DNA of 64,000 nucleotides. Origin: Clostridia bacterium. Lineage in GTDB: Bacteria > Bacillota > Clostridia > TANB77 > CAG-465. The stretch lies in contig JAZSRF010000045.1 of NCBI GenBank assembly GCA_045538335.1, positions 5,708 to 69,707 on the forward strand, read 5' to 3'. The translations under genes were made by a program, and so were the position numbers. The notes beneath the pieces were generated by a model. The model saw only the letters and a list, made by a program, of their open reading frames with translations, did no database searches and was not told the origin of the DNA. Below, piece by piece: positions 7,930-42,094 of this stretch. Each line of letters starts with the position of its first letter. The first letter of the stretch is position 1.

Positions 7930-7998
7930 TTTCTCCCGCTAATTATTTTAATAGTTTTGCAGCGAACACTCTACTTAACTCATTATTATTTAGCTTTA

Positions 7999-8631
7999 CT
8001 ACCATTCCGACCATTCTGGCCATCCTTGTACATCTTTAACAGAATCTTTTTTTGGCTGTTCTTTGTTTTCAACAATCTGATTATTCATACTTTCTTGATC
8101 ATCATATACTTTCGTCGACAAATCACTTGCTAAAGTTGCTTGCTTCTCTTTTTTTATATCAAACTTTTTTTCAAGCTTCTGTTCTGCGCATAATGGTAAC
8201 TGTATACTTTTTAACTTTGCATGTTTTATAGTGTCGCACATTAACTCAAAAACCGCTTCTCTATTTTCTAACAGTGTGTCAACAATTAAGCATGTTATTC
8301 CTCTATCAGAATACACTTCCGGGTAAGCATCATTTAAGTCAAAGTTATCATACATTGTTATTTCACAATTATATTTACTATCTATTAATTTTTTCGCTAT
8401 AGCCATAGCCATTTTCCTAGAATATTCATCATTTAAATTATATGAAATATATGGCGTACCAGTGTCTCCAGCACAACAAGCATGTGAGAGAAACCCTTTA
8501 TTATATCCTTGGTTTAATAATCTCTCTAGTTGTTTCGAACCTTCTGCCCATTCATGAAATGCTTTTTTACGTTCCTTCGCTGTTAATGTTTTTATGTCTA
8601 TAGGTTTTCCTGTATTGTACTTACTTTGCAA
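7999..8631 (-). CDS. hypothetical protein
   Basis: 210-aa ORF with RBS GGGGGAA upstream; no recognisable motif. Confidence 0.4.
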   Translation of the reverse strand: MQSKYNTGKPIDIKTLTAKERKKAFHEWAEGSKQLERLLNQGYNKGFLSHACCAGDTGTPYISYNLNDEYSRKMAMAIAKKLIDSKYNCEITMYDNFDLNDAYPEVYSDRGITCLIVDTLLENREAVFELMCDTIKHAKLKSIQLPLCAEQKLEKKFDIKKEKQATLASDLSTKVYDDQESMNNQIVENKEQPKKDSVKDVQGWPEWSEW

Positions 8632-8655: not shown

Positions 8656-10020
8656 TCAGTTATTTGTATACTTGATTACATATTCTTTAAATTTATCTCC
8701 ACGTTCTTCAAAGTTTTTAAACACTCCATAGCTTGCTGCTGCAGGAGACATTAAACATATTGTTCCTTTTTTAGTGATTTGAGTTGCAAGCTCTACTGCT
8801 TTTTCTAAATCTTCAGCTAGAACATAATTAGAATTTGTTCCTGTTTTCTTTAATTCCTCATAGATTTTCTTACCGCTATCATACATTAAGATAACATTTT
8901 CTACTTTACCTTGTGATAGGAATTCTATCAAAGATGAATAATGTATTCCTCTATCCATTCCTCCAACTATTACTGTATTTATATTTGGAATACTTTCTAC
9001 AGCAGAAATAACTGCTTCTGGAATAGTAGCAATAGAATCGTCTATATATGTTACTCCATCATACACACCAATATTTTCTAATCTATGTGCAAGCGGTTTA
9101 AATTCCATAATTGCTTTTGATATTTTTTCATCTTCTACGTCTAAAAGTTTGGCAACCGTTGTTGCAACCGCAATGTTATAACAGTTATGTGCACCGCGTA
9201 TATTTTCGTTTTTAGGCTCTCTCACGGTTATAATATCTCCGTGAATGTTAATACGAACTTGCTCTTCCGAATAACAGCAAGACTCTTGTTCTTCTGTTTC
9301 TTCTTTGCCAACACCAATATGATGTTGCTTTAATAGTCTATCGCCATTTAACACTTCTTTTTCAGCCTCATTAAATATGTAATAATCATTTTCGTCTTGG
9401 TATTTGTATATATTTCTTTTTGCCTCTTTATACTCTTCATAACCCTTGTAATGGTCTAAGTGGTCTTCATACATATTAAGAAGTACTGCAATATGAGGGC
9501 TACAGTCTACAAACTCCAATTGATGTGACGAAAGCTCATACACATAATAATCTGTTGTGTTATATGTTTCCATTTCTTCAAAAGCCGGAAGGCCAATGTT
9601 CCCAACAAGAAGCGTGTTGTATTTTTCTTTAAGCATTGAATATATTAATGAAGATGTTGTACTCTTACCTTTTGTTCCAGTAATTCCAATTATTTTATCT
9701 TTGCCATACTTTAAAAAAAGTTCCGTTTGAGATGTCACTTTATCTCTTAAACCTGTTAAATCTACATCTTTAAAAGACTGTCCTGGTGTTTTCATTATAA
9801 CATCATAGTCTTTCATTGCTTCTAAATAATTAGCCCCAGTATGAAGAGTTACATCTGAATTTAAAATTTCTTCGTCTGTTATCTCTTTAATATCTGCAAT
9901 ACCTACTTTACAGTCGATATTATTATTTTTTATAAATCTATATGTACTTCTTCCTTCACGGCCAAAGCCTAGGATAAGCACACTTTTACCTGTCAACTCT
10001 TGTATTATTTTTTCTTTCAC
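8656..10020 (-). CDS. murD: UDP-N-acetylmuramoyl-L-alanine--glutamate ligase (MurD; possibly L-Glu-adding MurD2 type)
   Basis: N-terminal Rossmann ILGFGREG, Mur-ligase P-loop GITGTKGKST, and an internal insertion (GVGKEETEEQESCCYSEEQVRINIHG). Confidence 0.8.
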   Translation of the reverse strand: MKEKIIQELTGKSVLILGFGREGRSTYRFIKNNNIDCKVGIADIKEITDEEILNSDVTLHTGANYLEAMKDYDVIMKTPGQSFKDVDLTGLRDKVTSQTELFLKYGKDKIIGITGTKGKSTTSSLIYSMLKEKYNTLLVGNIGLPAFEEMETYNTTDYYVYELSSHQLEFVDCSPHIAVLLNMYEDHLDHYKGYEEYKEAKRNIYKYQDENDYYIFNEAEKEVLNGDRLLKQHHIGVGKEETEEQESCCYSEEQVRINIHGDIITVREPKNENIRGAHNCYNIAVATTVAKLLDVEDEKISKAIMEFKPLAHRLENIGVYDGVTYIDDSIATIPEAVISAVESIPNINTVIVGGMDRGIHYSSLIEFLSQGKVENVILMYDSGKKIYEELKKTGTNSNYVLAEDLEKAVELATQITKKGTICLMSPAAASYGVFKNFEERGDKFKEYVIKYTNN

Positions 10021-32045: not shown

Positions 32046-32120
32046 ATGGTGCCCCCTGCGAGAATCGAACCCACAACTAGCCCTTAGGAGGGGCTTATTA
32101 TATCCATTTAACTAAGGGGA
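32046..32120 (-). tRNA. tRNA-Arg (anticodon CCU)
   Basis: Manual fold: acceptor GTCCCCT/AGGGGGC, D-arm GTTA-AATGGATA-TAAT, anticodon stem AGCCC/GGGCT with loop CTCCTAA, T-loop TTCGATT, encoded CCA. Confidence 0.85.
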
Positions 32121-32208
32121 CATTGCCTCTCAATTATACACAAGATTTAATTGTTTTTCAATATTTCATTGATTTTTTTGTTTTAGTAGTGTATAATAAT
32201 TCCCACAA

Positions 32209-32247
32209 GCACCAATAGCTCAACTGGATAGAGCGTCAGACTACGAA
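32209..32247 (+). other. 5' half (acceptor-5' strand, D-arm, anticodon 5' stem and loop) of a disrupted tRNA-Arg(ACG) gene; attL junction
   Basis: GCACCAATAGCTCAACTGGATAGAGCGTCAGACTACGAA is tRNA-like up to anticodon-loop position 38, then diverges. A TGTATAAT -10 lies just upstream. It pairs perfectly with the 3' half at 40498..40544. Confidence 0.7.
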
Positions 32248-32311
32248 CAGAACGCTCAAAACCTTATACCTATTGATAATGCTGTTTTTCAGGGTTTGGG
32301 AATTTTTCATT

Positions 32312-32328
32312 CCCCAGTTTTACCCCAA
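32312..32328. repeat. 17-bp direct repeat CCCCAGTTTTACCCCAA (left-arm copy; candidate Int arm-type site)
   Basis: Identical 17-mer recurs at 40309..40325 near the other end of the element. Each copy is next to a short palindrome (GGGAATttttcATTCCC / TTCCCAAAATTGGGGAA). Confidence 0.5.
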
Positions 32329-32353
32329 AAAACTAAAATACAATTTAACATAT

Positions 32354-32430
32354 GCGGCAGTAGCTCAATTGGATAGAGTAACGGACTACGAATCCGTCGG
32401 TTGGGGGTTCAAATCCCTTCTGCCGCACCA
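32354..32430 (+). tRNA. tRNA-Arg (anticodon ACG), intact, carried just inside the element
   Basis: Acceptor GCGGCAG/CTGCCGC, anticodon stem ACGGA/TCCGT with loop CTACGAA, T-loop GGTTCAAATCC, encoded CCA; 77 nt. Confidence 0.9.
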
Positions 32431-32465
32431 CTTTTACAGCTTTTAGTTTACAGAAGGCTGTATTT

Positions 32466-33747
32466 TTATCCCCAAATTTTATTAATTTCTTCTCTTTTTC
32501 TTGTTAATGTAACGTGTATATAATACTTCTTTGTTGTAGATGAGTCAGAGTGCCCCATTAGTTCTTTTAACACAACATCAGGCACACCTCTTTCACTGCA
32601 TAATGTTGCAAAACTATGCCTTAAACCATACAAGGTTACTTTCCCCAATTTGTACTTTTTAATAAATGTTGGTATTTTATTTGTTAATCTTTCAGATACA
32701 TAAGGTCCTCCGTTTTCATTTAGAAAAACATATTCTTCATCCGACCATTTTATATTATTCCTTTTTGCCTTTTCTTTTTTGCTTTCTTTTAACTTAATTA
32801 ACATTTTAAATAACCTTGGCGACATTGGTATAATTCTATAACTTTCTTTAGTTTTAAGACTGCTATCTGCTTTCTTATAGCCAATAGCATTAAAGTTCTC
32901 ATCAAATATTTGAATTTCTTTATATGCATTTTCTACACATATAGTCTCATCTTTAAAATTTACACATTTCCATTTTAAGCCACAACCGTTCTTCTGGTCT
33001 CATACCAGTTTGAATTATGGTAGCAAAGAGCAGCGCCCAATCTCTACCATCTTGTTCGGCACAATCTAACCACTTTACTTGTTCTTCAGATGTTAAATAA
33101 CTAATCTCTTTTCTTCTCTTGGGTGGTAACACAATATCTACAATAGGGTTAATACTAATTAAATTTTGCTGTCTTGCAAAGTCCATTATTTGTTTCATTG
33201 TAATGTAATTATCTCTTGCCATTTTAGGTGCATTTCTATTATCTATGTAATTTTGAAACATCTCTTTTGTAATTTCATTTATTAAGTATTCTCCAAATGC
33301 AGGTATTAAATTAGACTTAACATTGTATACATATTGTTCAAAAGTTTTACTGCTTAATCTTTTTGCTCTGTTAGGCATTGTTTCTTGTCTTCTTTTTTCC
33401 AGCCAATTAAAAGCAACCTTATTAAACTTATTACACTCTTTTGCTTTAGAAATAATTTCTTGTGTAACATCCTCATTGTTATATTCTTTTAGTTTTCTCA
33501 AACTTTTAGAACATGTCCTATTTGTTTCTTCTTCATTTAACCCTTTGCCTTGTGATGCCCTAATGTATGCCTCAGCTATTGCTTCACCAAGTTTTCTTTT
33601 TGCCTCCTTTTCTGAAACAGAACTAAACCTAGATAATCTATAGTTTTTTATACCATCAATATCTAAAGTTATTCTTGCTTCATAACCATTATTTCTTTTT
33701 CTAACGCTTATAGTGCCCTTTTTAGCCCTTTCTTTTATTTTCTTCAT
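32466..33747 (-). pseudogene. int: tyrosine site-specific integrase, disrupted by a frameshift near 32950..32990
   Basis: The N-terminal ORF (32953..33747) ends inside box I (...TGMRPEERLW). The C-terminal ORF (32466..32825) carries LRHSFATL...HSD...Y catalytic residues in a different frame (lower coordinate mod 3 = 0 vs 1). The alternative frame reads through as ...GLKWKCVNFKDET.... Confidence 0.7.
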
Positions 33748-33844
33748 ACAATTCCCTCCTAATATAAAGAAAATGTTTAAATTAGCGTTTAGAAAGGTAA
33801 ATCATAGTTATTATAACATCTCTTTATATGTAAAGTCTAATCTT

Positions 33845-34033
33845 TTAATAATAATATTTGCCGTAATTTTCGTGAATCCACTTTTCAAGATCTTGCTTAT
33901 TAATAATTACTTTTCGCTTAAATCTTATACAAGGGAATCCATCAACTTTAATTAGTTCTAGCATTAAGTTTCTTCCAATGCCCAACATCTTTCTTGCTTC
34001 CTCAATGCTAATACATACCTTTTCGTCTTGCAT
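33845..34033 (-). CDS. xis: excisionase/AlpA-like small HTH DNA-binding protein
   Basis: 62 aa from ATG 34033 (RBS AAGGAGG): MQDEKVCISIEEARKMLGIGRNLMLELIKVDGFP. Directly upstream of int. Confidence 0.5.
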   Translation of the reverse strand: MQDEKVCISIEEARKMLGIGRNLMLELIKVDGFPCIRFKRKVIINKQDLEKWIHENYGKYYY

Positions 34034-34140
34034 ACTATACCTCCTTCTTCTTAAATTGAAAGGATTTGTTATATAAATAATCTGTCCACTTAATATAACT
34101 AAAAATAACAAATGTAAAATTTAAAATTATATATTTTTTA

Positions 34141-34540
34141 CTTTGCTTATTACTTGCCCCTTCACTTACTATATATCCTTCAAACACTAAAAATCGGACA
34201 AGATTTATAAAAATAGCGACTTTTTACAAAATTTCACATAATCTTCTTTGTTTTTAGTATTAATTTTTATATTCTCTCATTACTTAACAGTCCTCCAAAC
34301 ATATAAATAATTAGAAGATTTACAAAAATAACACAATTTTCTTTATTTGTTATAATTAGTTTTATCCCCTTTCACTTCCCTATCGATTGAAACAGTGAAA
34401 GTCGGACAAAATATTAAAAATTTATTTAATTTTTTATAAATTAGATTATTTACCCCTTCACTTATATAAACAGTTGAAACACCAAAAATCTGACAAAATT
34501 TATAAAAACCGTGCTTTTTCACACAATTTCACACAAAAAT
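34141..34540. repeat. iteron-like imperfect direct repeats (CCCCTTCACTTA ... AAAAATC(G/T)GACAA(G/A)ATTTATAAAAA ... ATTTCACA) x ~2.5 in AT-rich non-coding DNA
   Basis: Copy 1 is 34156..34238; a partial copy with the hairpin CTTTCACT..AGTGAAAG is 34365..34420; copy 3 is 34455..34534. The two ~50-bp units are ~80% identical. Confidence 0.5.
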
Positions 34541-35244
34541 ACCCTTATAATTGGAAATATCAATGTAATAAAAAAGCAGTATTAAAACCACTCAAACAAA
34601 ACAAATAACTTTTGATATCTGTTTTATACATTAACTTTTGTTCATTAAATAAGAAGAAGTACTTTATTAAGTATATCAACTTTCACTTAAAATAAAGAAA
34701 AGCTTTAAAAAGGGAACATATAATATAATTAATTTAGTTTATGATGCAATACTAGATAACTTGACCTTTCCTAATGGCAAAAACCAAAGTGTTTATTCTC
34801 TACGAACCATGAAGCTGACAATAGTTATCCATAAGAAATAAAAATGTATAAATTTGAATATTACTTAAATTGTAAACTCAAAGATCAATTTCCTAAAGTT
34901 ACAGCTAACAAAAGAGTTAATTTTTAAAAAGTTCTAAAAGTTTAAAGATAAAGCAAAAAATCTATTATCAAAACAAAACTATCATATAAGAAGCAAACGA
35001 CACCAAGAGGTAAAGTATTCTTTTGCGCAAGCAAAATTGAATAAAGAAATTAAAAATCTTACTAAGATAACTTAAAACCAGATACATAATGGTACATTAT
35101 TTGTATGCATTTGACACCGAGATATGTTTAATAGTATGATAACCACACTATCTATAGTATAACTGAAAATGAGAAATCAAGCAATATTGTTTAAAAATTT
35201 GGGCGCCCTAAAATTATTTTAGGGTGCCCTCTTTGTTTTGAGAC

Positions 35245-35418
35245 CTATTCAAGTGCAAAACTAGCAAAATACATATCCTTGCCCGTGCAACGCTGTCTGC
35301 ACTTGGAAGTGCTCAATACACGAAACTTCTTTCCTTGCGTCTTTGCATCATTACGTTGAGCTTTGATATAAGCCCTACGCTCTTTAGGAGAATCAAACCA
35401 CGTTGACCAATTTTTCAT
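35245..35418 (-). CDS. small hypothetical protein (57 aa) with its own RBS and terminator
   Basis: GGAGGTG RBS; MKNWSTWFDSPKERRAYIKAQRND...; downstream hairpin GGGCGCCCTAAAAT/ATTTTAGGGTGCCC at 35204..35232. Confidence 0.3.
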   Translation of the reverse strand: MKNWSTWFDSPKERRAYIKAQRNDAKTQGKKFRVLSTSKCRQRCTGKDMYFASFALE

Positions 35419-35445
35419 TAGTGCACCTCCAATATGAGTCTTCTT

Positions 35446-35661
35446 CTACAATTCAAAAAATTCTTTTCGTTCTTCCGCAGTTATATTAAAAAGTCCCCCG
35501 TGTCCATCTTTAACTTCCCAGACCCCATCTTCGCAAGAACCTGATTTCCCAGGGAACTTATCCTTGACGCCGAGAATTGTTCCAGATGTAATCTGAACAC
35601 CCGTCTTTGTAACATAATCTTTATTGCATTTTATTTGCCATAAATTTCTGCAACAAGTCAT
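35446..35661 (-). CDS. small Cys-rich hypothetical protein (71 aa from ATG 35661)
   Basis: RBS AAGGAGG + ATG giving MTCCRNLWQIKCNKDY...SGSCEDGVWEV. The longer ORF call lacks an RBS. Confidence 0.35.
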   Translation of the reverse strand: MTCCRNLWQIKCNKDYVTKTGVQITSGTILGVKDKFPGKSGSCEDGVWEVKDGHGGLFNITAEERKEFFEL

Positions 35662-36180
35662 ATTTTTAATCCTCCTTATAATTTGTTGATGTTTATTCGA
35701 CAAGGTACTACTGCTATACAATACAGTGCCTCCTTAAAGTCGTACAAAACCTAAATGCTTTTATTATTTCATTATAGTAAAATGAAATTCAATTAAACTG
35801 ACACCTATATTATAACATATATTTTATGTAAAGTCAAATAAGAATACGCCGAGACATTTTCTACTTATTATGTTAATATTTCCAAATCACAGTCGAGCAA
35901 CTGTATATATTAGTATAGTATCACTAACTATCAGTACTATATATAAGGTCAATAATAAATGCTATATTTTAATGCAACTTATTTGTTTTTTCATTAGATT
36001 AATTTTTAAACCCGTTATTTCTTAATTTATTTATACCTAATACAGGAATAGATGCAAGACACATCGGCTCACATCTTAGAGGCACAGCCACTAAACTTGT
36101 ATTACAATTTCAATTTTGTATTACATTTGTAATACGATAACCAAGTTGGTCATTTTAAGTAGAATGCTACATATAAGCAA

Positions 36181-36232
36181 AACTACAGTATCTCTTGTTT
36201 AAGAGTAACTGTAGTTTTATTTTATTTATCCA
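36181..36232. terminator. hairpin AAAACTACAGT...ACTGTAGTTTT with T-rich flank at 3' end of the defence operon
   Basis: 11-bp inverted repeat overlapping the stop of the RloB-like gene. Confidence 0.4.
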
Positions 36233-36908
36233 TCATTTCTTCTAATAACAATCCCACATTAGAGCCCAATTCAGTCTTTAAATATTTAACATCTTCACAA
36301 AAAGACTTTTCATTTTCTATTGCTGTTCTAATATTAGCTTTAAATTTTTTGAAATCAATATTTCTTTTATTACAACCAAATATTTGATTTAACTTAACCT
36401 CTAAAAACCTTCTGTTATTGCTTATTTTTTCATTATTTAACATATCCTCTTTGCTTATGTTAAAAACTTCTTTACTATGCAATACAAGAAAAAATTCAAA
36501 AGTAGGATTTGTTACAAAAGGGAAATATCCACATCTACTAACACCCTCTAAAAACTCATCATATTGATTGTCTTTAAAATTTTGTGGATCCCTATCGACT
36601 ATAAAACATACCTTGTCTATTTCTTTACTGTACACAAATTTATCTTCATCTAAAGATTTATTAAAGTTTTCTAATTTTTTAAGCGGATGGCTTTGTCCAT
36701 ATTCGCTTTCTTCATTTTCTACCGGAACAATCTCTATCAAATCTTTTATTCCTATTTCTTCCGAATTTTCTTTTACACCTTGAAAGTATTGTAATTCTGT
36801 TTTATCTCCTTCAGAAACAATAAAATATTTAGACTTAGGTTCTTTACTTCCTTTTCTTCTTTCTAGGTTTAATCCATTTTCACTAATTATTCTCATCTGA
36901 TAAATCAC
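36222..36908 (-). CDS. RloB-like (AbiLii-type, Toprim/OLD-related) defence protein
   Basis: Toprim-like signatures YFIVSEGDKTELQYF and FIVDRDPQ. Overlaps the preceding ATPase gene by 26 nt (operon). Confidence 0.6.
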   Translation of the reverse strand: MIYQMRIISENGLNLERRKGSKEPKSKYFIVSEGDKTELQYFQGVKENSEEIGIKDLIEIVPVENEESEYGQSHPLKKLENFNKSLDEDKFVYSKEIDKVCFIVDRDPQNFKDNQYDEFLEGVSRCGYFPFVTNPTFEFFLVLHSKEVFNISKEDMLNNEKISNNRRFLEVKLNQIFGCNKRNIDFKKFKANIRTAIENEKSFCEDVKYLKTELGSNVGLLLEEMMDK

Positions 36909-38283
36909 CTACCGGAAATACAGTTTCAAAAATTGGTACTCCACCATAACGGCCTTCTAAATATGCTTTATCAATCTTTTTATCAAATCTCTCATTATAA
37001 TCTTCTAAAGAATATAACTCTGTTTGACCATATTTTTGTCTATTTGCAAACCAAACCTCATCTCTCCTTAATAAGTCAAAATCTAAAAGCCTAGATTCAT
37101 GTGTAGTAACTATTAATTGTGTATTCTTATCTTCAGAGTTAGCTAAAAATCTTTTTACAAATTCAAACGTTAATTGTGGATGCAAACATCTATCTACTTC
37201 ATCTATTAAATAAACTTTCTCTTTATTTTTATTCATCAAAATTTCAATTAGATCGAATAATCTTTGTGTACCATCGGATTCCTCAGAAAATAAATATTCA
37301 CTTTCATTATTTTTATGCTTTAATACTATCTTTTGAACTTGAATACCAGCTAATTCTGCTTTTCTCAAGATATACATTTCCTTATTTATTCTAATATTTG
37401 CTTGTTGAACAATTATTTTGTTGTATTTCTTCAAATTATCCATAAAAGCTTTTTCTATAGTATCAATCATATTCTTTAGAATATCTGGTGGTATGTTGTC
37501 TTTTAATTCTTGCAAACTTGATTTTACAACTTTACATTTGCTGATTCCCGTTCCAAATGTAGAAATTATATCATTTATTTTTTCAATATTTTCTTCTGTA
37601 GAAAAATACGGTGTATTATCTAAACCTACTTGTGGAAAAATGATAGTTAAAGTATTATTAAACCAATTAAATAAATCTCTAAAAATACATACATTATTAT
37701 CTGGAAATTCTTTATACATTGTATCTTTGTTTTTATTCATAATGGTTAAAAATAATATATTATCTTGGCTCTTCATATCTGAATAATAAACGTTATTTCT
37801 ATTTATTATATCTTGGACATCATTAAAATATTAACTGTTTAATTCTATATTTTCATTTAGTTTTCTTGTATAAATAAGTATTTCCTTATTTTTATTTTTA
37901 TCCAACTCATATAGCCATTCTGCACGAATACTATTTTCTGATAATAGCATATCAAATCCATAAGCATAATATTTATCATTAATTTTTATTTCATATTCAA
38001 ATGAAGATATCTTATCCTTATTTGAATTGTTGATTCTGCAATATAGACTTGTGACATTAAATGCTACTCCTCTTAAAATAATGTTTTTCCCAAAATTAAT
38101 TGCTTTTAATAAATTAGATTTTCCGGATGCATTAGCCCCATATACCGCTGAAAATTTTAGTAATTTTAGTTTTTCATCGCTTACTAAGTGCGCTGCTTTA
38201 TTTTTTACAGCACCCGCTATCATAGAGAATTCTTGTTCTTCATTAAAAGATAAAAAATTTGAAACTTTAAATCTTATTAACAT
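36883..38283 (-). pseudogene. ABC-type AAA_21/AAA_15 ATPase (AbiLi/AriA-like) interrupted by a single in-frame TAA (37831..37833)
   Basis: N-terminal part has Walker A FSAVYGANASGKSNLLKAI. C-terminal part has ABC signature ESDGTQRLF, Walker B VYLIDEVDRCLHP and H-loop VTTHE. Both ORFs share one frame. The 18 codons between stop and next ATG have no further stops. Confidence 0.7.
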
Positions 38284-38491
38284 ATTCTTCCTCTCCTTTT
38301 ATATTATTTTATGTGATAAAATCGTTTTTGTCAATAATGTTTTATGTAATTTAGAGCAATTTTATGAATTTGTAGGTGATTTTTTCACTTTAGCGTTGTT
38401 TTATTAACTATTTTGTATTTACACAATATTTTTATAGCATTGATTTTAATTATATCTGTTGATATAATTAATTTGTACAGGAGGTGTACTT

Positions 38492-38902
38492 ATGATTTTA
38501 TTAAGTGAAATAATCGCTGGGTTAGAAACAGTTAGTGATATCACTGATGTTTACTACAATCCCGAAACAGAAGAAACATTTTTATCTGATATCGGAGATT
38601 TTGAGGATTTAGATGAAGATGAATTAGATGAACTTTTTGAAAAATCTATAATGTTGCCTACAAGATATGATATAAACGAATATGGAATGATGGAAGAATT
38701 TATAGAAACCAAAAACAACAATACTCTTTTATATAATCAACTATGCATTGCAATTAATGGTCCTGGTGCATTTAGAAGATTCAAGGATACTTGTATTAAC
38801 TTTGATATTATTGACGAATGGTGCAAATTTAGAGATGCTAAATATAGAGAACTTGCGATAGAATGGTGTAACGAACACAATATCAAATATAAGGAGGACT
38901 AG
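38492..38902 (+). CDS. hypothetical acidic protein (element cargo)
   Basis: 136 aa with RBS AGGAGGTG, run of acidic residues (DFEDLDEDELDELFE) and motif GPGAFRRFKD. Confidence 0.45.
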   Translation: MILLSEIIAGLETVSDITDVYYNPETEETFLSDIGDFEDLDEDELDELFEKSIMLPTRYDINEYGMMEEFIETKNNNTLLYNQLCIAINGPGAFRRFKDTCINFDIIDEWCKFRDAKYRELAIEWCNEHNIKYKED

Positions 38903-38904
38903 CC

Positions 38905-39633
38905 ATGTTAAAAGCAAAATTAACAGACAATTTAGCAGGACTTACTATTAGTGGTGATCACGAAGATTTAGACAAGCTTTACGATGCTATAAATTATTTA
39001 ATTAAAGGCGAACCCAATAGTATACAAGAATATACTATGCAAAACCATTTGTATGGCTTTTTATATGATGTAAGACACGCTTATCAAGGTGATAGAGAGA
39101 TAGAATTAATAGATAACTGGGTTAGCGAAGACGTAAGAAAATGGCATGGCTTTAAAAAAGCTGAGATTACAGATAAAAACGCATATTTTAGTTTTAACTA
39201 CCCTTTACCAGATATGTTACTAGATATGGTCTTAATTCAACACTTTATCAGAAAAGTACATAAGAAAGAAAATGACATTTACAATCCATACATAAACATT
39301 GTAAATTTATTTTATAGTATTGCATTAGATCCGTTATATCAAGTACTAACACCAAACAAATTTAATACTATAAAGAACGGCCTATTGGAATCAGTTGTTC
39401 CAGTAAAATCTTTCTGTCCACAATGGTTTCAAATGATAACTTGTGATTATTTAAAATGGCCTAAAGAAAAACGATTGAAAAATCTGCCTAAGATAGCAGA
39501 TGAAATATATAATTTTATGGAATATGAGGATTATGTTAAAATAAAAATAGATATGGATAAATATTGTAAAGAAAACAATTGTACACTAGATGATGTTACT
39601 ATGGGCGAATATCCAACCGAAATAATTTGGTAA
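38905..39633 (+). CDS. hypothetical protein (element cargo), translationally coupled to 38492..38902
   Basis: 242 aa, RBS AAGGAGG, start 2 nt after upstream stop. Confidence 0.45.
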   Translation: MLKAKLTDNLAGLTISGDHEDLDKLYDAINYLIKGEPNSIQEYTMQNHLYGFLYDVRHAYQGDREIELIDNWVSEDVRKWHGFKKAEITDKNAYFSFNYPLPDMLLDMVLIQHFIRKVHKKENDIYNPYINIVNLFYSIALDPLYQVLTPNKFNTIKNGLLESVVPVKSFCPQWFQMITCDYLKWPKEKRLKNLPKIADEIYNFMEYEDYVKIKIDMDKYCKENNCTLDDVTMGEYPTEIIW

Positions 39634-39664
39634 ACAAAAACAATATTCTGTCTAGTATTTTTTA

Positions 39665-39715
39665 GAGAAATCTGGAGTTGCACTCCAAATTTCTCTAAAT
39701 TTTTGTTTTTTTCTT
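39665..39715 (+). terminator. Rho-independent terminator (TTTAGAGAAAT-CTGGAGTTGCACTCCA-AATTTCTCTAAA + T-tract)
   Basis: Nested inverted repeats followed by TTTTTGTTTTTTTC after the 242-aa gene. Confidence 0.55.
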
Positions 39716-39784
39716 TATATGCATTTTTGTTAATATAATAACTTGTAATAATAATTTTATAGTATTTAATTTATATTATTATAT

Positions 39785-39873
39785 TCTACAATTTTGTATA
39801 TACCTTCTCTACATTTTTGTATAGTACCTATAGTCATTTTTGATAATACCCTCTCTACAAAATTGTAGAGAAG
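39785..39873. repeat. three copies of CTACA(A/T)TTTTGTA(T/G)A; third copy is a 16-bp palindrome TCTACAAAATTGTAGA
   Basis: Copies at 39785..39800, 39808..39824 and 39855..39870, immediately 3' of the HTH_36 replication-like gene. Confidence 0.45.
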
Positions 39874-39890
39874 TTGCCATTTAATCCCCT

Positions 39891-40244
39891 TTAGTACCCT
39901 GCATCTATATAATCATTATAATCTAATTCATAGTCTATATTTTTCTTACGAGTGAGCCTACTGTTATCTAGTAAGTATATCTTTCTTTTTGAATCCTCAC
40001 TATTTTTTACTATCTCTACTTCTAGATATCCCTCCTTAACAAGTTTGCTTATCCATCTAGATATTGTGTTTGGATCACAATTATATAATCTTGCGAAATA
40101 TTTGTTTCCTGCAAAACAATATCCCTTTTTATTTGTTAATGCTGTTATTTCACCATATAACAATTTTTGTCCATTATTTAGATTTTCATCATATCTTACC
40201 TTTGCAGGTATTATTGCATAGTAACTTGGTTTTATTTTTTCCAT
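39891..40244 (-). CDS. HTH_36 / phage replisome-organiser N-terminal-domain-like DNA-binding protein (candidate replication initiator)
   Basis: YYAIIPAKVRYDENLNNGQKLLYGEITALTNKKGYCFAGNKYFARLYNCDPNTISRWISKLVKEGYLEVE matches the winged-helix pattern of DnaD-like/replisome-organiser N-terminal domains. Confidence 0.5.
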   Translation of the reverse strand: MEKIKPSYYAIIPAKVRYDENLNNGQKLLYGEITALTNKKGYCFAGNKYFARLYNCDPNTISRWISKLVKEGYLEVEIVKNSEDSKRKIYLLDNSRLTRKKNIDYELDYNDYIDAGY

Positions 40245-40308
40245 ATATTTTTACCTTTGATTTACCTTTCCCAAAATTGGGGAATAAAATTTATTTGCTT
40301 ATACTATA

Positions 40309-40325
40309 CCCCAGTTTTACCCCAA
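40309..40325. repeat. 17-bp direct repeat CCCCAGTTTTACCCCAA (right-arm copy)
   Basis: Identical to 32312..32328. Confidence 0.5.
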
Positions 40326-40497
40326 TTTTTGTAATTTTTCTTAAACTAATTTAAACTTTTTCGTATTTTTTTAAATTAAAATAAATTTTTGTTTTATCAA
40401 AGGTAATAAGATTTTTTGCAGTATTTTCAACACTTGTAACGTTTTTTCTTGATTTTTCTAGTGCTTAATGATATACTCATTTTGACTATTGGTGTAC

Positions 40498-40544
40498 GAC
40501 TACGAATCTGAAGGTTGGGGGTTCGAGTCCCTTTTGGTGCACCA
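40498..40544 (+). other. 3' half (anticodon loop through CCA) of the disrupted tRNA-Arg(ACG) gene; attR junction
   Basis: GACTACGAATCTGAAGGTTGGGGGTTCGAGTCCCTTTTGGTGCACCA. The acceptor 3' strand TTGGTGC is the exact complement of GCACCAA at 32209. There is no local 5' partner. Confidence 0.7.
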
Positions 40545-40615
40545 ACAAGTATACAGCTCATGTTATACTTGTTTTTTAATATTCAATAGTTGCAAACTAT
40601 TTCCAGGGGGTTAAC

Positions 40616-41627
40616 TGTGAAGAAAATTATATATCTTTTTAAAAGAATATGTGAAATGGATTTCAAATCTATGTTTAAAACAGCAAGGCGTGTTGGAAAA
40701 GCTAATAAGGCATCATCTATTATAGTTTTGTTTGATATAATTCGTTGCGGAATAAAATATATGGCAGGGTATGTAGATTACGAAGTTTTTGGATTTTACA
40801 ACCTAACCAAAGAGCAAAGAGAAACAATTATAACAAGAGGCATTAATAATCGTTTTGTTGCAACACTAAACGACAAAGAATTAGCAAACACTTTAGATAA
40901 CAAGTTACTATTTAACAAAAGATTTAATGAGTTATTAAAAAGAGACTGGCTTAATTTAAAAGAAACTTCAAAAGAAGAATTTGCAAAGTTTCTTAAAGAC
41001 AAAACAAATATAATTGTTAAACCAGTAGACCAGGCATGCGGAAGAAACGTTGAGAAAATAAGCGTTAAAGAAATTAATGATATTAACAATTTATATGACA
41101 ACCTAATATCTAAAAAACAATATTTGGTAGAAGATTGCATTGTGCAACATCCTAAAATGTCTGAAATATATCCTAACGCAGTTAATACCCTAAGAATAGT
41201 TACTGTTACTAAAAACAATAAAGTTAACATTATGTTTAGAAGCATTCGCATGGGCAATTCAGGTAATGTTGTAGACAATTTCAATCACGGCGGATTATTT
41301 ACAACAATAGAAGAAAATGGAGTTATTCAAAAACCAGCTGTAGACAAACTTGGTAATATCTATGATAGTCATCCATTTACAAATACACCGCTTATAGGAT
41401 ATGAAATCCCTTTATTTAAACAAGCAATCGAATTCGTAAAAACAATGGCAATTTCCATACCAGAAGTTGGATACGTCGGTTGGGATATCGCTATTACAGA
41501 AAACGGGCCTGTTGTTGTAGAAGCAAATCCATTCCCAGGCCACGATATATATCAATCAAAAATACACATGAAGGCAGACGGAACAGGACTTAGAAAAGAT
41601 TTTGAAAAAATAATATATGAAGACTAG
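40616..41627 (+). CDS. ATP-grasp family protein (sugar-transfer-associated ATP-grasp type)
   Basis: ATP-grasp fold signatures (IIVKPVDQACGRNVEKI, EVGYVGWDIAITENGPVVVEANPFPG). Likely GTG start at 40616 after RBS AGGGGG. Confidence 0.55.
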
Positions 41628-42094
41628 CTCTTGCTAGTCTTCTTTTTTTTCCTTAATTCCTTAAAGAATTCTTTTATTAATGTTTCACAATCCTCTTTAC
41701 AGATTCCTTGTTCAAATTCTACTTTGTGATTAGATTTTATCCCAAAGGCATTAACTACACTTGTTACTGTTCCATATTTTTCATCACACGCTCCGAAATA
41801 CACTTTTCTAATCCTCGATTGTACTATCGCACCAGAACACATCAGACATGGCTCAACCGTCACATATAAATCACAATTTTCAAGTCTAAAATTATTTAAC
41901 TTTTTACACGCCTTATCTATAGCAATTATTTCAGCATGTTTCAAACTGTTTTGTTTGCTTTCACGCAAATTATATCCTCTAGATATAATCTTTCCACCCT
42001 TTACTATTACAGCACCTATAGGCACTTCGTCTTTTTTCCTTGCCTTTATAGCCTCTTTTATAGCCTCTTTCATAAACTTTTCTTGTTCATTCAT
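41624..42094 (-). CDS. tadA: tRNA-specific adenosine(34) deaminase
   Basis: CMP/dCMP deaminase zinc motifs HAEIIAI and PCLMCSGAI; 156 aa. Confidence 0.85.
   Translation of the reverse strand: MNEQEKFMKEAIKEAIKARKKDEVPIGAVIVKGGKIISRGYNLRESKQNSLKHAEIIAIDKACKKLNNFRLENCDLYVTVEPCLMCSGAIVQSRIRKVYFGACDEKYGTVTSVVNAFGIKSNHKVEFEQGICKEDCETLIKEFFKELRKKKKTSKS

Follow-up and report, generated by a model that had tools for sequence, protein, structure and literature searches.

An island integrated in the window, the whole stretch of 64,000 nucleotides of Clostridia DNA analysed here, is best explained as an element whose tyrosine integrase splits a host tRNA-Arg(ACG) gene and which supplies a whole replacement tRNA. 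We give this explanation a probability of about 80%. An earlier note on this DNA had drawn attention to an intact tRNA gene inside the island. The analysis confirms this observation; the phenomenon is real, makes mechanistic sense and is widespread among Clostridia of the gut. The junctions and the island itself are made up of the following features.

32169..32197 (+), promoter-like site of the disrupted host tRNA gene, TTGATT-17-TATAAT; empty sites have this promoter region ahead of their intact tRNA
32209..32247 (+), 5' half of the host tRNA-Arg(ACG), on the host side of attL; its final bases are the anticodon loop CTACGAA, and the alignment with the element-free contig L093 stops at 32247
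32239..32247 (no strand), left common core GACTACGAA, the crossover region, recognised by its repeat count in 64 kb
32248..32353 (+), spacer of 106 bp, taken as the P' arm of attP; a 17-bp motif, CCCCAGTTTTACCCCAA, lies at 32312-32328
32354..32430 (+), element-borne intact tRNA-Arg(ACG), with acceptor GCGGCAG, A20, discriminator A and an encoded CCA
32435..32462 (+), terminator-like hairpin with a T run behind it, which separates the tRNA from the end of int
32466..33747 (-), tyrosine integrase, 426 aa when rejoined; Pfam Phage_int_M, Phage_int_SAM_3 and Phage_integrase
33845..34111 (-), excisionase-like HTH_17 protein; Pfam HTH_17, PHROG 66 (excisionase/regulator)
36222..36908 (-), AbiLii / RloB-like protein, defence cargo
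36883..38283 (-), AbiLi-type AAA ATPase, with an in-frame TAA at 37831-37833
38492..39633 (+), pair of cargo genes, UPF0158 and DUF6904; contig L097 has a module of 90% identity beside its intact tRNA
39891..40244 (-), HTH_36 protein of 117 aa, like the N-terminal DNA-binding domain of phage and plasmid replication initiators; conserved with locus L007
40245..40497 (+), 250-bp right arm, taken as the P arm of attP; the 17-bp motif recurs at 40309-40325
40498..40544 (+), right core GACTACGAA and 3' half of the host tRNA-Arg(ACG), host side of attR; acceptor pairing with the 5' half at 32209 is 7/7

ARAGORN calls two tRNA genes in this DNA, a tRNA-Arg(CCT) at 32047-32121 (-) and the tRNA-Arg(ACG) at 32354-32430 (+). 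Another tRNA-Arg(ACG) gene is present in two pieces, and neither half is recognised alone, as ARAGORN and Rfam report no tRNA at either junction. Rejoining 32209-32247 with 40507-40544, with one copy of the repeat kept, produces a perfect 77-nt tRNA-Arg(ACG) cloverleaf with the acceptor GCACCAA/TTGGTGC. The 9-bp repeat GACTACGAA occurs three times in 64 kb (0.17 copies are expected), at both junctions and within the intact tRNA. The left junction lies at 32247/32248, the insertion point is the anticodon loop of the host tRNA, and the insert extends from 32248 to 40497 (8.25 kb). The common core is 9 bp long in the window element and is reduced to CTACGAA (7 bp) across the family. The sequence that follows the attL core (cagaacgctcaaaacc...) is not tRNA-like, and the 106 bp of the spacer separate the 5' half from the cargo tRNA. 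Integration of the window island leaves the host gene as two dead halves, with no tRNA rebuilt at the junctions. The claim that an insertion in the anticodon loop splits a tRNA-Arg(ACG) is borne out by the perfect tRNA that the rejoined halves form and by the intact gene at empty sites.

The intact gene was described in the earlier note as a complete, well-folded tRNA-Arg(ACG) 106 bp inside the left junction, distinct from the disrupted gene and followed immediately by an integrase gene that is transcribed toward it. Each part of this description holds. ARAGORN recognises the tRNA, and the Rfam tRNA model matches 32354-32430 over its full length (68 bits, E = 1.7e-13). It differs from the split tRNA at 16 of 77 positions (61/77 match), and the acceptors read GCGGCAG and GCACCAA, respectively. 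The integrase gene runs from 33747 to 32466 (-) and ends 35 nt past the tRNA. The cargo tRNA is identical in the related loci L001, L006 and L007.

The same locus free of the element was reached through homologues of a MazG-like flank protein. Nine such contigs (L086-L088, L091, L093, L094 and L097-L099), from JGI, ENA and NCBI, share the order MazG-like gene, tRNA-Arg(CCT), 87-bp promoter region and tRNA-Arg(ACG). A single intact tRNA-Arg(ACG) is present at 9/9 of these empty sites. It is identical to the rejoined halves at 77/77 positions and matches the 32354 tRNA at 61/77, and the GCGGCAG-type tRNA is absent from the locus in all nine contigs. Contig L093 is collinear with the window up to exactly 32247, and the alignment resumes at 41639, past the insert. 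Because the nine insert-free contigs hold only the undisrupted host-type tRNA at the locus, the 32354 tRNA is cargo. The earlier note had proposed that the element brings its own tRNA-Arg(ACG), and that finding this tRNA at the same position in relatives without the element would make it native. None of the nine has it there, and the cargo reading survives. The competing proposal of the note, a native 32354 tRNA with a tandem duplicate split by an element that was attracted by common sequence, is refuted. Both tRNAs do contain GACTACGAATC and GGTTGGGGGTTC, but the intact tRNA sits between the two halves, i.e. within the insert, and the element-free relatives have one tRNA-Arg(ACG) at the locus, of the GCACCAA type, and no GCGGCAG tRNA.

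Two look-ups of the flanks were negative. The flank genes of the window gave no match in exact-protein look-ups. Searching metagenome_contigs for exact copies of the intact host tRNA yielded 0 matches, though the JGI contigs L086-L088 carry the same 77-mer; because they contain it, the negative scan is uninformative for this locus.

A gene for a tRNA-modifying enzyme lies close by. tadA (41624-42094, -, in the window; 9225-9686 in L093) encodes the A34-to-inosine deaminase for tRNA-Arg(ACG). It directly adjoins tRNA-Arg(ACG) at the empty sites of L093 and L094. The island and an ATP-grasp gene (40590-41627) part the two in the window.

The arrangement recurs throughout the integrase family. 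A profile search of genome contigs identified 200 relatives of the integrase, and all 80 that were fetched come from metagenome-assembled genomes (MAGs) of uncultured gut Clostridia. Together with the window and five contigs obtained by protein look-up, 86 loci were compared. An intact tRNA-Arg(ACG) is found just past the integrase stop in 67/86 loci, and 54 of those 67 also have a tRNA-Arg(ACG) 5' half ending in CTACGAA at most 400 bp outside the cargo tRNA. Both host halves are present in nine loci; their acceptor strands pair 7/7 in 9/9, and the inserts measure 6.6-10.5 kb. Most elements carry the cargo tRNA 105-155 bp from the core. One element type, with a common junction sequence and a cargo tRNA that begins GTACCCG, is found in four different host tRNAs (L018, L020, L048 and L084). 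Since one cargo tRNA stands beside four different host 5' halves, the tRNA travels with the element.

Contig L003 is a circular, or attP, junction, and about 130 bp separate its core from a complete tRNA. Its right arm, which is 92-93% identical to the right ends of the integrated elements L018 and L048, leads through the core into the spacer, and the tRNA and int follow. Over their shared part, L003 and L005 are identical. Homology between the arms of the window element and L003 was dropped, as local alignment did no better than shuffled controls, and the attP status of L003 was established instead through the right ends of L018 and L048. The attL, attR, attB and attP forms are all seen across the family. 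All four copies of the window element (window, L001, L006 and L007) occupy one site of related hosts. This single-site clade fits vertical inheritance, and mobility is seen in other members of the family.

The same evidence makes it very improbable that the 32354 tRNA is the product of classical reconstitution, i.e. a chimera of host and element formed at attL, with the upstream 5' half as older debris. The order of intact tRNA, int and distal 3' fragment does look classical at first sight, and the 47-nt 3' parts of the two tRNAs are 83% identical. However, the pairing partner (7/7) of the distal 3' half is the 5' half upstream and not the intact tRNA, and empty sites hold the GCACCAA-type tRNA only. 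The tRNA is complete on the attP junction contig, and cargo tRNAs stay constant while the host halves vary. Five relatives also lend the classical reading some support. In L015 (9789-9865 and 18431-18475), L041, L047, L050 and L081, a host-like promoter stands straight before the tRNA and both the spacer and the 5' half are missing, so the family is not uniform. The distal 3' fragment of L015 is identical to the 3' half of its tRNA. A deletion between identical, directly repeated 5' halves is a plausible route by which such classical-looking members could have arisen.

Elements of the family also enter one another. The nested loci L012, L020 (123-531), L026 and L073 have a second 5' half further out, and the inner half in L020 and L073 is the acceptor-end sequence of a cargo tRNA known elsewhere in the family. 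L022 (9626-16708) contains the 3' half of an inner target and, 136 bp on, the remnant of an outer integrase (aa 352-424). In L030, the only 5' half present has the sequence of that in the cargo tRNA, and the split tRNA of L061 matches its cargo tRNA at 77/77 positions. Resident cargo tRNAs are also targeted by incoming elements.

Replacement of the lost tRNA has a further competitor, which we consider unlikely. The host could have more tRNA-Arg(ACG) genes, the disruption would then be incidental, and the cargo tRNA would have another use, for instance against tRNA-cleaving defence systems or as a codon supply. Phage tRNAs have been proposed to counter anticodon nucleases (discussion of PMC10865867; PARIS paper), the islands carry defence cargo that includes AbiL, Abi_2 and Schlafen-like proteins, and the host sequence covered is 64 kb. 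A general supplement, however, does not fit the choice of tRNA. The cargo isoacceptor is the target isoacceptor in 67/67 loci with an integrase-adjacent tRNA, it always lies beside attP, and no other tRNA species is carried by the elements of these 67 loci. An element that enters the cargo tRNA of another (L020, L022, L026 and L073) again brings a tRNA-Arg(ACG), which fits replacement.

Cargo tRNAs have the properties of working genes. Among 22 distinct cargo tRNAs, 99.8% of stem positions are paired and 16/21 pairs show compensatory changes; shuffled and slid controls score far lower. All 22 agree in the loop CTACGAA, in A20 and in the discriminator A73. We take the anticodon loop, A20 and the discriminator A to be the elements recognised by arginyl-tRNA synthetase and TadA. 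The fold of the cargo tRNA is under selection, as judged from these substitution patterns. Some displaced 5' halves are decaying: those of L017 (about 9620-9660) and L019 (about 7960-8000) are mutated at otherwise invariant positions, for example with the core CTACGAA changed to ATACGAA, and the cargo tRNAs of both loci are intact. The codons CGU, CGC and CGA account for 80 of the 11,989 codons in the long ORFs of the window, and decoding by tRNA-Arg(ACG) is therefore needed. With 64 kb of host sequence covered, the cargo tRNA would compensate for the disrupted gene, and it is presumably charged, modified and needed by the host.

Expression of the cargo tRNA appears to differ between members of the family. 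A near-consensus promoter is located 10-13 nt before the cargo tRNA in 29 of 48 distinct family spacers. No consensus promoter is present in the window spacer (32248..32353) or in the other short-spacer types. The host promoter at 32169-32197 is co-oriented with the cargo tRNA, 157 bp upstream of it, and is now directed toward it through the 5' half and the spacer. We infer that the cargo tRNA of the window clade is expressed by read-through from this captured host promoter. A right-end promoter at 40449-40477, which could have driven the tRNA across a circular attP, was considered and set aside, as it matches at 9/12 positions and is not conserved in other members.

According to the replacement model, the tyrosine integrase would recombine attP with an attB in the host tRNA-Arg(ACG) gene, within the 7 nt of its anticodon loop. 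The attachment site shares just 9 bp (GACTACGAA) with the tRNA, and neither junction rebuilds it. A complete and different tRNA-Arg(ACG), carried between the attachment site and the integrase gene, would supply the lost decoding of CGU, CGC and CGA. With a core confined to an invariant loop and a tRNA that is replaced whole, no match to the acceptor or anticodon stems of the host would be needed. This freedom would in turn allow entry into many different tRNA-Arg(ACG) genes, resident cargo tRNAs included. The apparent benefit to the element is that it can enter tRNA-Arg(ACG) genes with quite different stems, even a resident cargo tRNA.

The earlier note had called such an arrangement unusual. 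It is rarely reported, and to that extent the word stands; it is not new, as it matches tRNA-dependent lysogeny (Guerrero-Bustamante & Hatfull, mBio 2024, PMC10865867), which was described for the phages Fionnbharth (K4), LeBron (L1), Cain (K6), Gaia (X) and others. The integrase cores of these actinobacteriophages, 8-17 bp long, overlap genes for tRNA-Lys, tRNA-Ile2 or tRNA-Leu, integration does not restore the tRNA, and viable lysogens were shown experimentally to need a phage tRNA of the same isotype (PMC10865867). Whole replacement of an essential tRNA gene was thus described in 2024, for actinobacteriophages only, and the principle is hence not new. Both systems have a tyrosine integrase, putative arm-type sites, an attB that overlaps a tRNA gene and a short core, and both include tRNA-reconstituting and tRNA-replacing relatives within one integrase family. 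At the level of sequence, the window element has the features that define tRNA-dependent lysogeny. Its cargo tRNA may be essential, for which compensatory evolution of the cargo tRNAs, decay of displaced halves and the use of CGU, CGC and CGA give indirect support. The definition also specifies a temperate phage as the carrier, whereas the carrier here is an island of 6.6-10.5 kb without recognisable phage structural genes, whose integrase family is almost absent from IMG/VR. Other differences are the hosts (gut Clostridia), the target (tRNA-Arg(ACG)), the position of the tRNA immediately beside attP, and the stacking of islands in each other's cargo tRNAs. The Fionnbharth tRNA has its own strong promoter, whereas the tRNA of the window clade appears to borrow that of the host.

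The authors of PMC10865867 ask how common tRNA-dependent lysogeny is beyond actinobacteriophages, and they cite the prophage Lj965 of Lactobacillus johnsonii as an earlier hint. The tRNA is reportedly not rebuilt by Lj965, which encodes a cognate tRNA (Ventura et al. 2003/2004, cited in PMC10865867 and PMC3714127). Lj965 resembles the island in being a Firmicutes element and reportedly differs from it in being a full prophage with four tRNA genes. Here, whole replacement is seen in small islands that are not phages and that occur commonly among uncultured Clostridia from the guts of humans, mice, rabbits and chickens.

Classical tRNA-targeting islands (the sublocation classes of Williams 2002, and the Islander database, PMC4383910) restore the target at one junction. 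The window element resembles them in its tyrosine integrase, a crossover in the anticodon loop, the location of int near the tRNA-proximal end and the displaced 3' fragment at the far end. Classical islands carry only the 3' part of a tRNA and regenerate a chimeric gene, whereas a whole separate gene is carried here. Islander defines its islands by sequence that restores the split target at one junction, and neither junction of the window element does so. As a result, programs that seek a regenerated tRNA and a displaced fragment will mis-map such islands, and tRNA censuses of these genomes will take the foreign tRNA for the native one.

The integrase gene of the window changes frame. Its reading frame proceeds to ...RPEE and continues in the +1 frame with GCGLKWK...; the junction reads GAA GAA CGG T, with the CGG at 32986-32988 (-), and the rejoined protein matches the family consensus RPEEGCGLKW. 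The R..HxxR..Y residues are conserved in an alignment of 31 relatives. The frame change is identical in the window, L001, L006 and L007, and dN/dS is 0.02-0.16 in both halves of the gene. A reading of the integrase as a dead pseudogene, with the element immobilised, was rejected because the change is shared by four assemblies, dN/dS is low (0.02-0.16) on both sides, and the change recurs in distant lineages.

Frame switching affects 18 of 68 full-length integrase genes. Deletion of the C from one CGG restores an ORF of 428-492 aa in 17 of the 18, and also in L073; in L077-L079, two tandem CGG codons need the deletion. The set with CGG recoding consists of the window, L001, L006, L007, L063, L065-L068, L070-L075 and L077-L079. 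Depending on the lineage, the CGG occupies one of three sites in the gene (RPEE/G, GC/G and S(G)/G, the slash marking the switch). The +1 codon is always GGT or GGA and encodes a conserved glycine, and the zero-frame CGG is followed by T or A. Pairs of genes that share a site have diverged to dS of up to about 1.5, with dN/dS of 0.08-0.30 on both sides of it. Of the arginine codons, CGG is used least in the window: the 11,989 codons of ORFs with 250 aa or more include 2, and ORFs with 150 aa or more contain four, one of them the integrase frame-change site.

Some lesions have another form. L069, with three CGG frame changes and at least one other lesion, was left out of the recoding count. L046 (about 6602) and L082 (about 10219) have a -1-type lesion at aa 351/352, where GTC CAG AAA stands against V-P-E-R and no CGG is involved. 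L046 is the frame-switching gene outside the CGG pattern, with a lesion equivalent to a missing base. The lesion in L046 and L082 may be genuine decay.

The conserved sites and the codon pattern argue for programmed +1 recoding of the integrase at a hungry CGG codon, and not for decay of the gene. We found no report of CGG +1 recoding of such an integrase in the literature searched, and the frame change is probably the most novel observation in this analysis. The yeast retrotransposon Ty1 reportedly makes a +1 frameshift at the rare arginine codon AGG, a finding attributed to Belcourt and Farabaugh (1990). By analogy, a +1 shift at a rare arginine codon would in both cases be the only way to the recombinase of a mobile element. 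The integrases differ in being bacterial, in using CGG followed by GGN in the +1 frame, and in having varied P-site codons (GAA, TGT/TGC, AGT and GGA), and they are known from sequence alone. If real, the recurrent CGG recoding would be a bacterial counterpart of Ty1-type recombinase control.

These lines of evidence can be combined in one broader reading, which we offer tentatively and which falls somewhat short of an even chance. The islands would form a large, undescribed, non-phage family of gut Clostridia that destroys tRNA-Arg(ACG) and replaces it whole, with no stem matching and with stacking. Synthesis of their integrase would depend on a programmed +1 frameshift at a hungry CGG, read on as a GGN glycine, with no other route, and this signal would have arisen at three or more positions in the gene and been kept by purifying selection. 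If this broader reading is true, the dosage of the integrase would be set by the arginine-decoding capacity of the cell, with target and cargo both being arginine tRNAs.

The backbone of the islands comprises the integrase, the Xis-like protein and the replication-initiator-like protein; the cargo is variable and includes defence genes. L006 and L007, at the same site in related hosts, have ends in common with the window element, and their middles differ. The 17-bp motif CCCCAGTTTTACCCCAA occurs once in each arm, with two exact copies in 64 kb against 0.06 expected, and is a putative arm-type integrase site. The interrupted AbiLi ATPase is either a pseudogene or a read-through gene. A further CGG frameshift was ruled out as the cause of its split, as the lesion is an in-frame TAA.

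A search for capsid, tail, terminase and lysis genes was negative both for the window element and for eight further complete members of the family. Phage and plasmid collections gave no nucleotide match to the element by megablast. A search of the integrase against 2.9 M viral contigs (IMG/VR) returned one weak relative, against 200 in genome contigs, and a search of viral contigs for the cargo tRNA returned nothing useful. The element is an island with defence or metabolic cargo and is not recognisably a phage. It may have a satellite lifestyle.

Parts of the cargo are shared with element-free loci. The UPF0158 and DUF6904 pair (window 38440-39643) is 90% identical to 10626-11829 of L097 in reverse complement, and it is also present in L098 and L099. 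In the element-free contigs L097-L099, the pair directly follows the intact tRNA-Arg(ACG) without an integrase and is followed by SWIM and AAA_14/DUF4143 genes; a SWIM and AAA_14 pair is cargo in L010. The identity of the pair (90%) exceeds that of the flanks (75-86%), which suggests an exchange of modules between the islands and a hotspot. Beside the Xis-like gene, an ORF-poor stretch contains a 72-nt imperfect direct repeat (34170-34241 and 34465-34536) with 78% identity between copies that lie 295 bp apart. The repeat region is conserved with L006 and L007 to about 34590, and it may be a regulatory or origin region.
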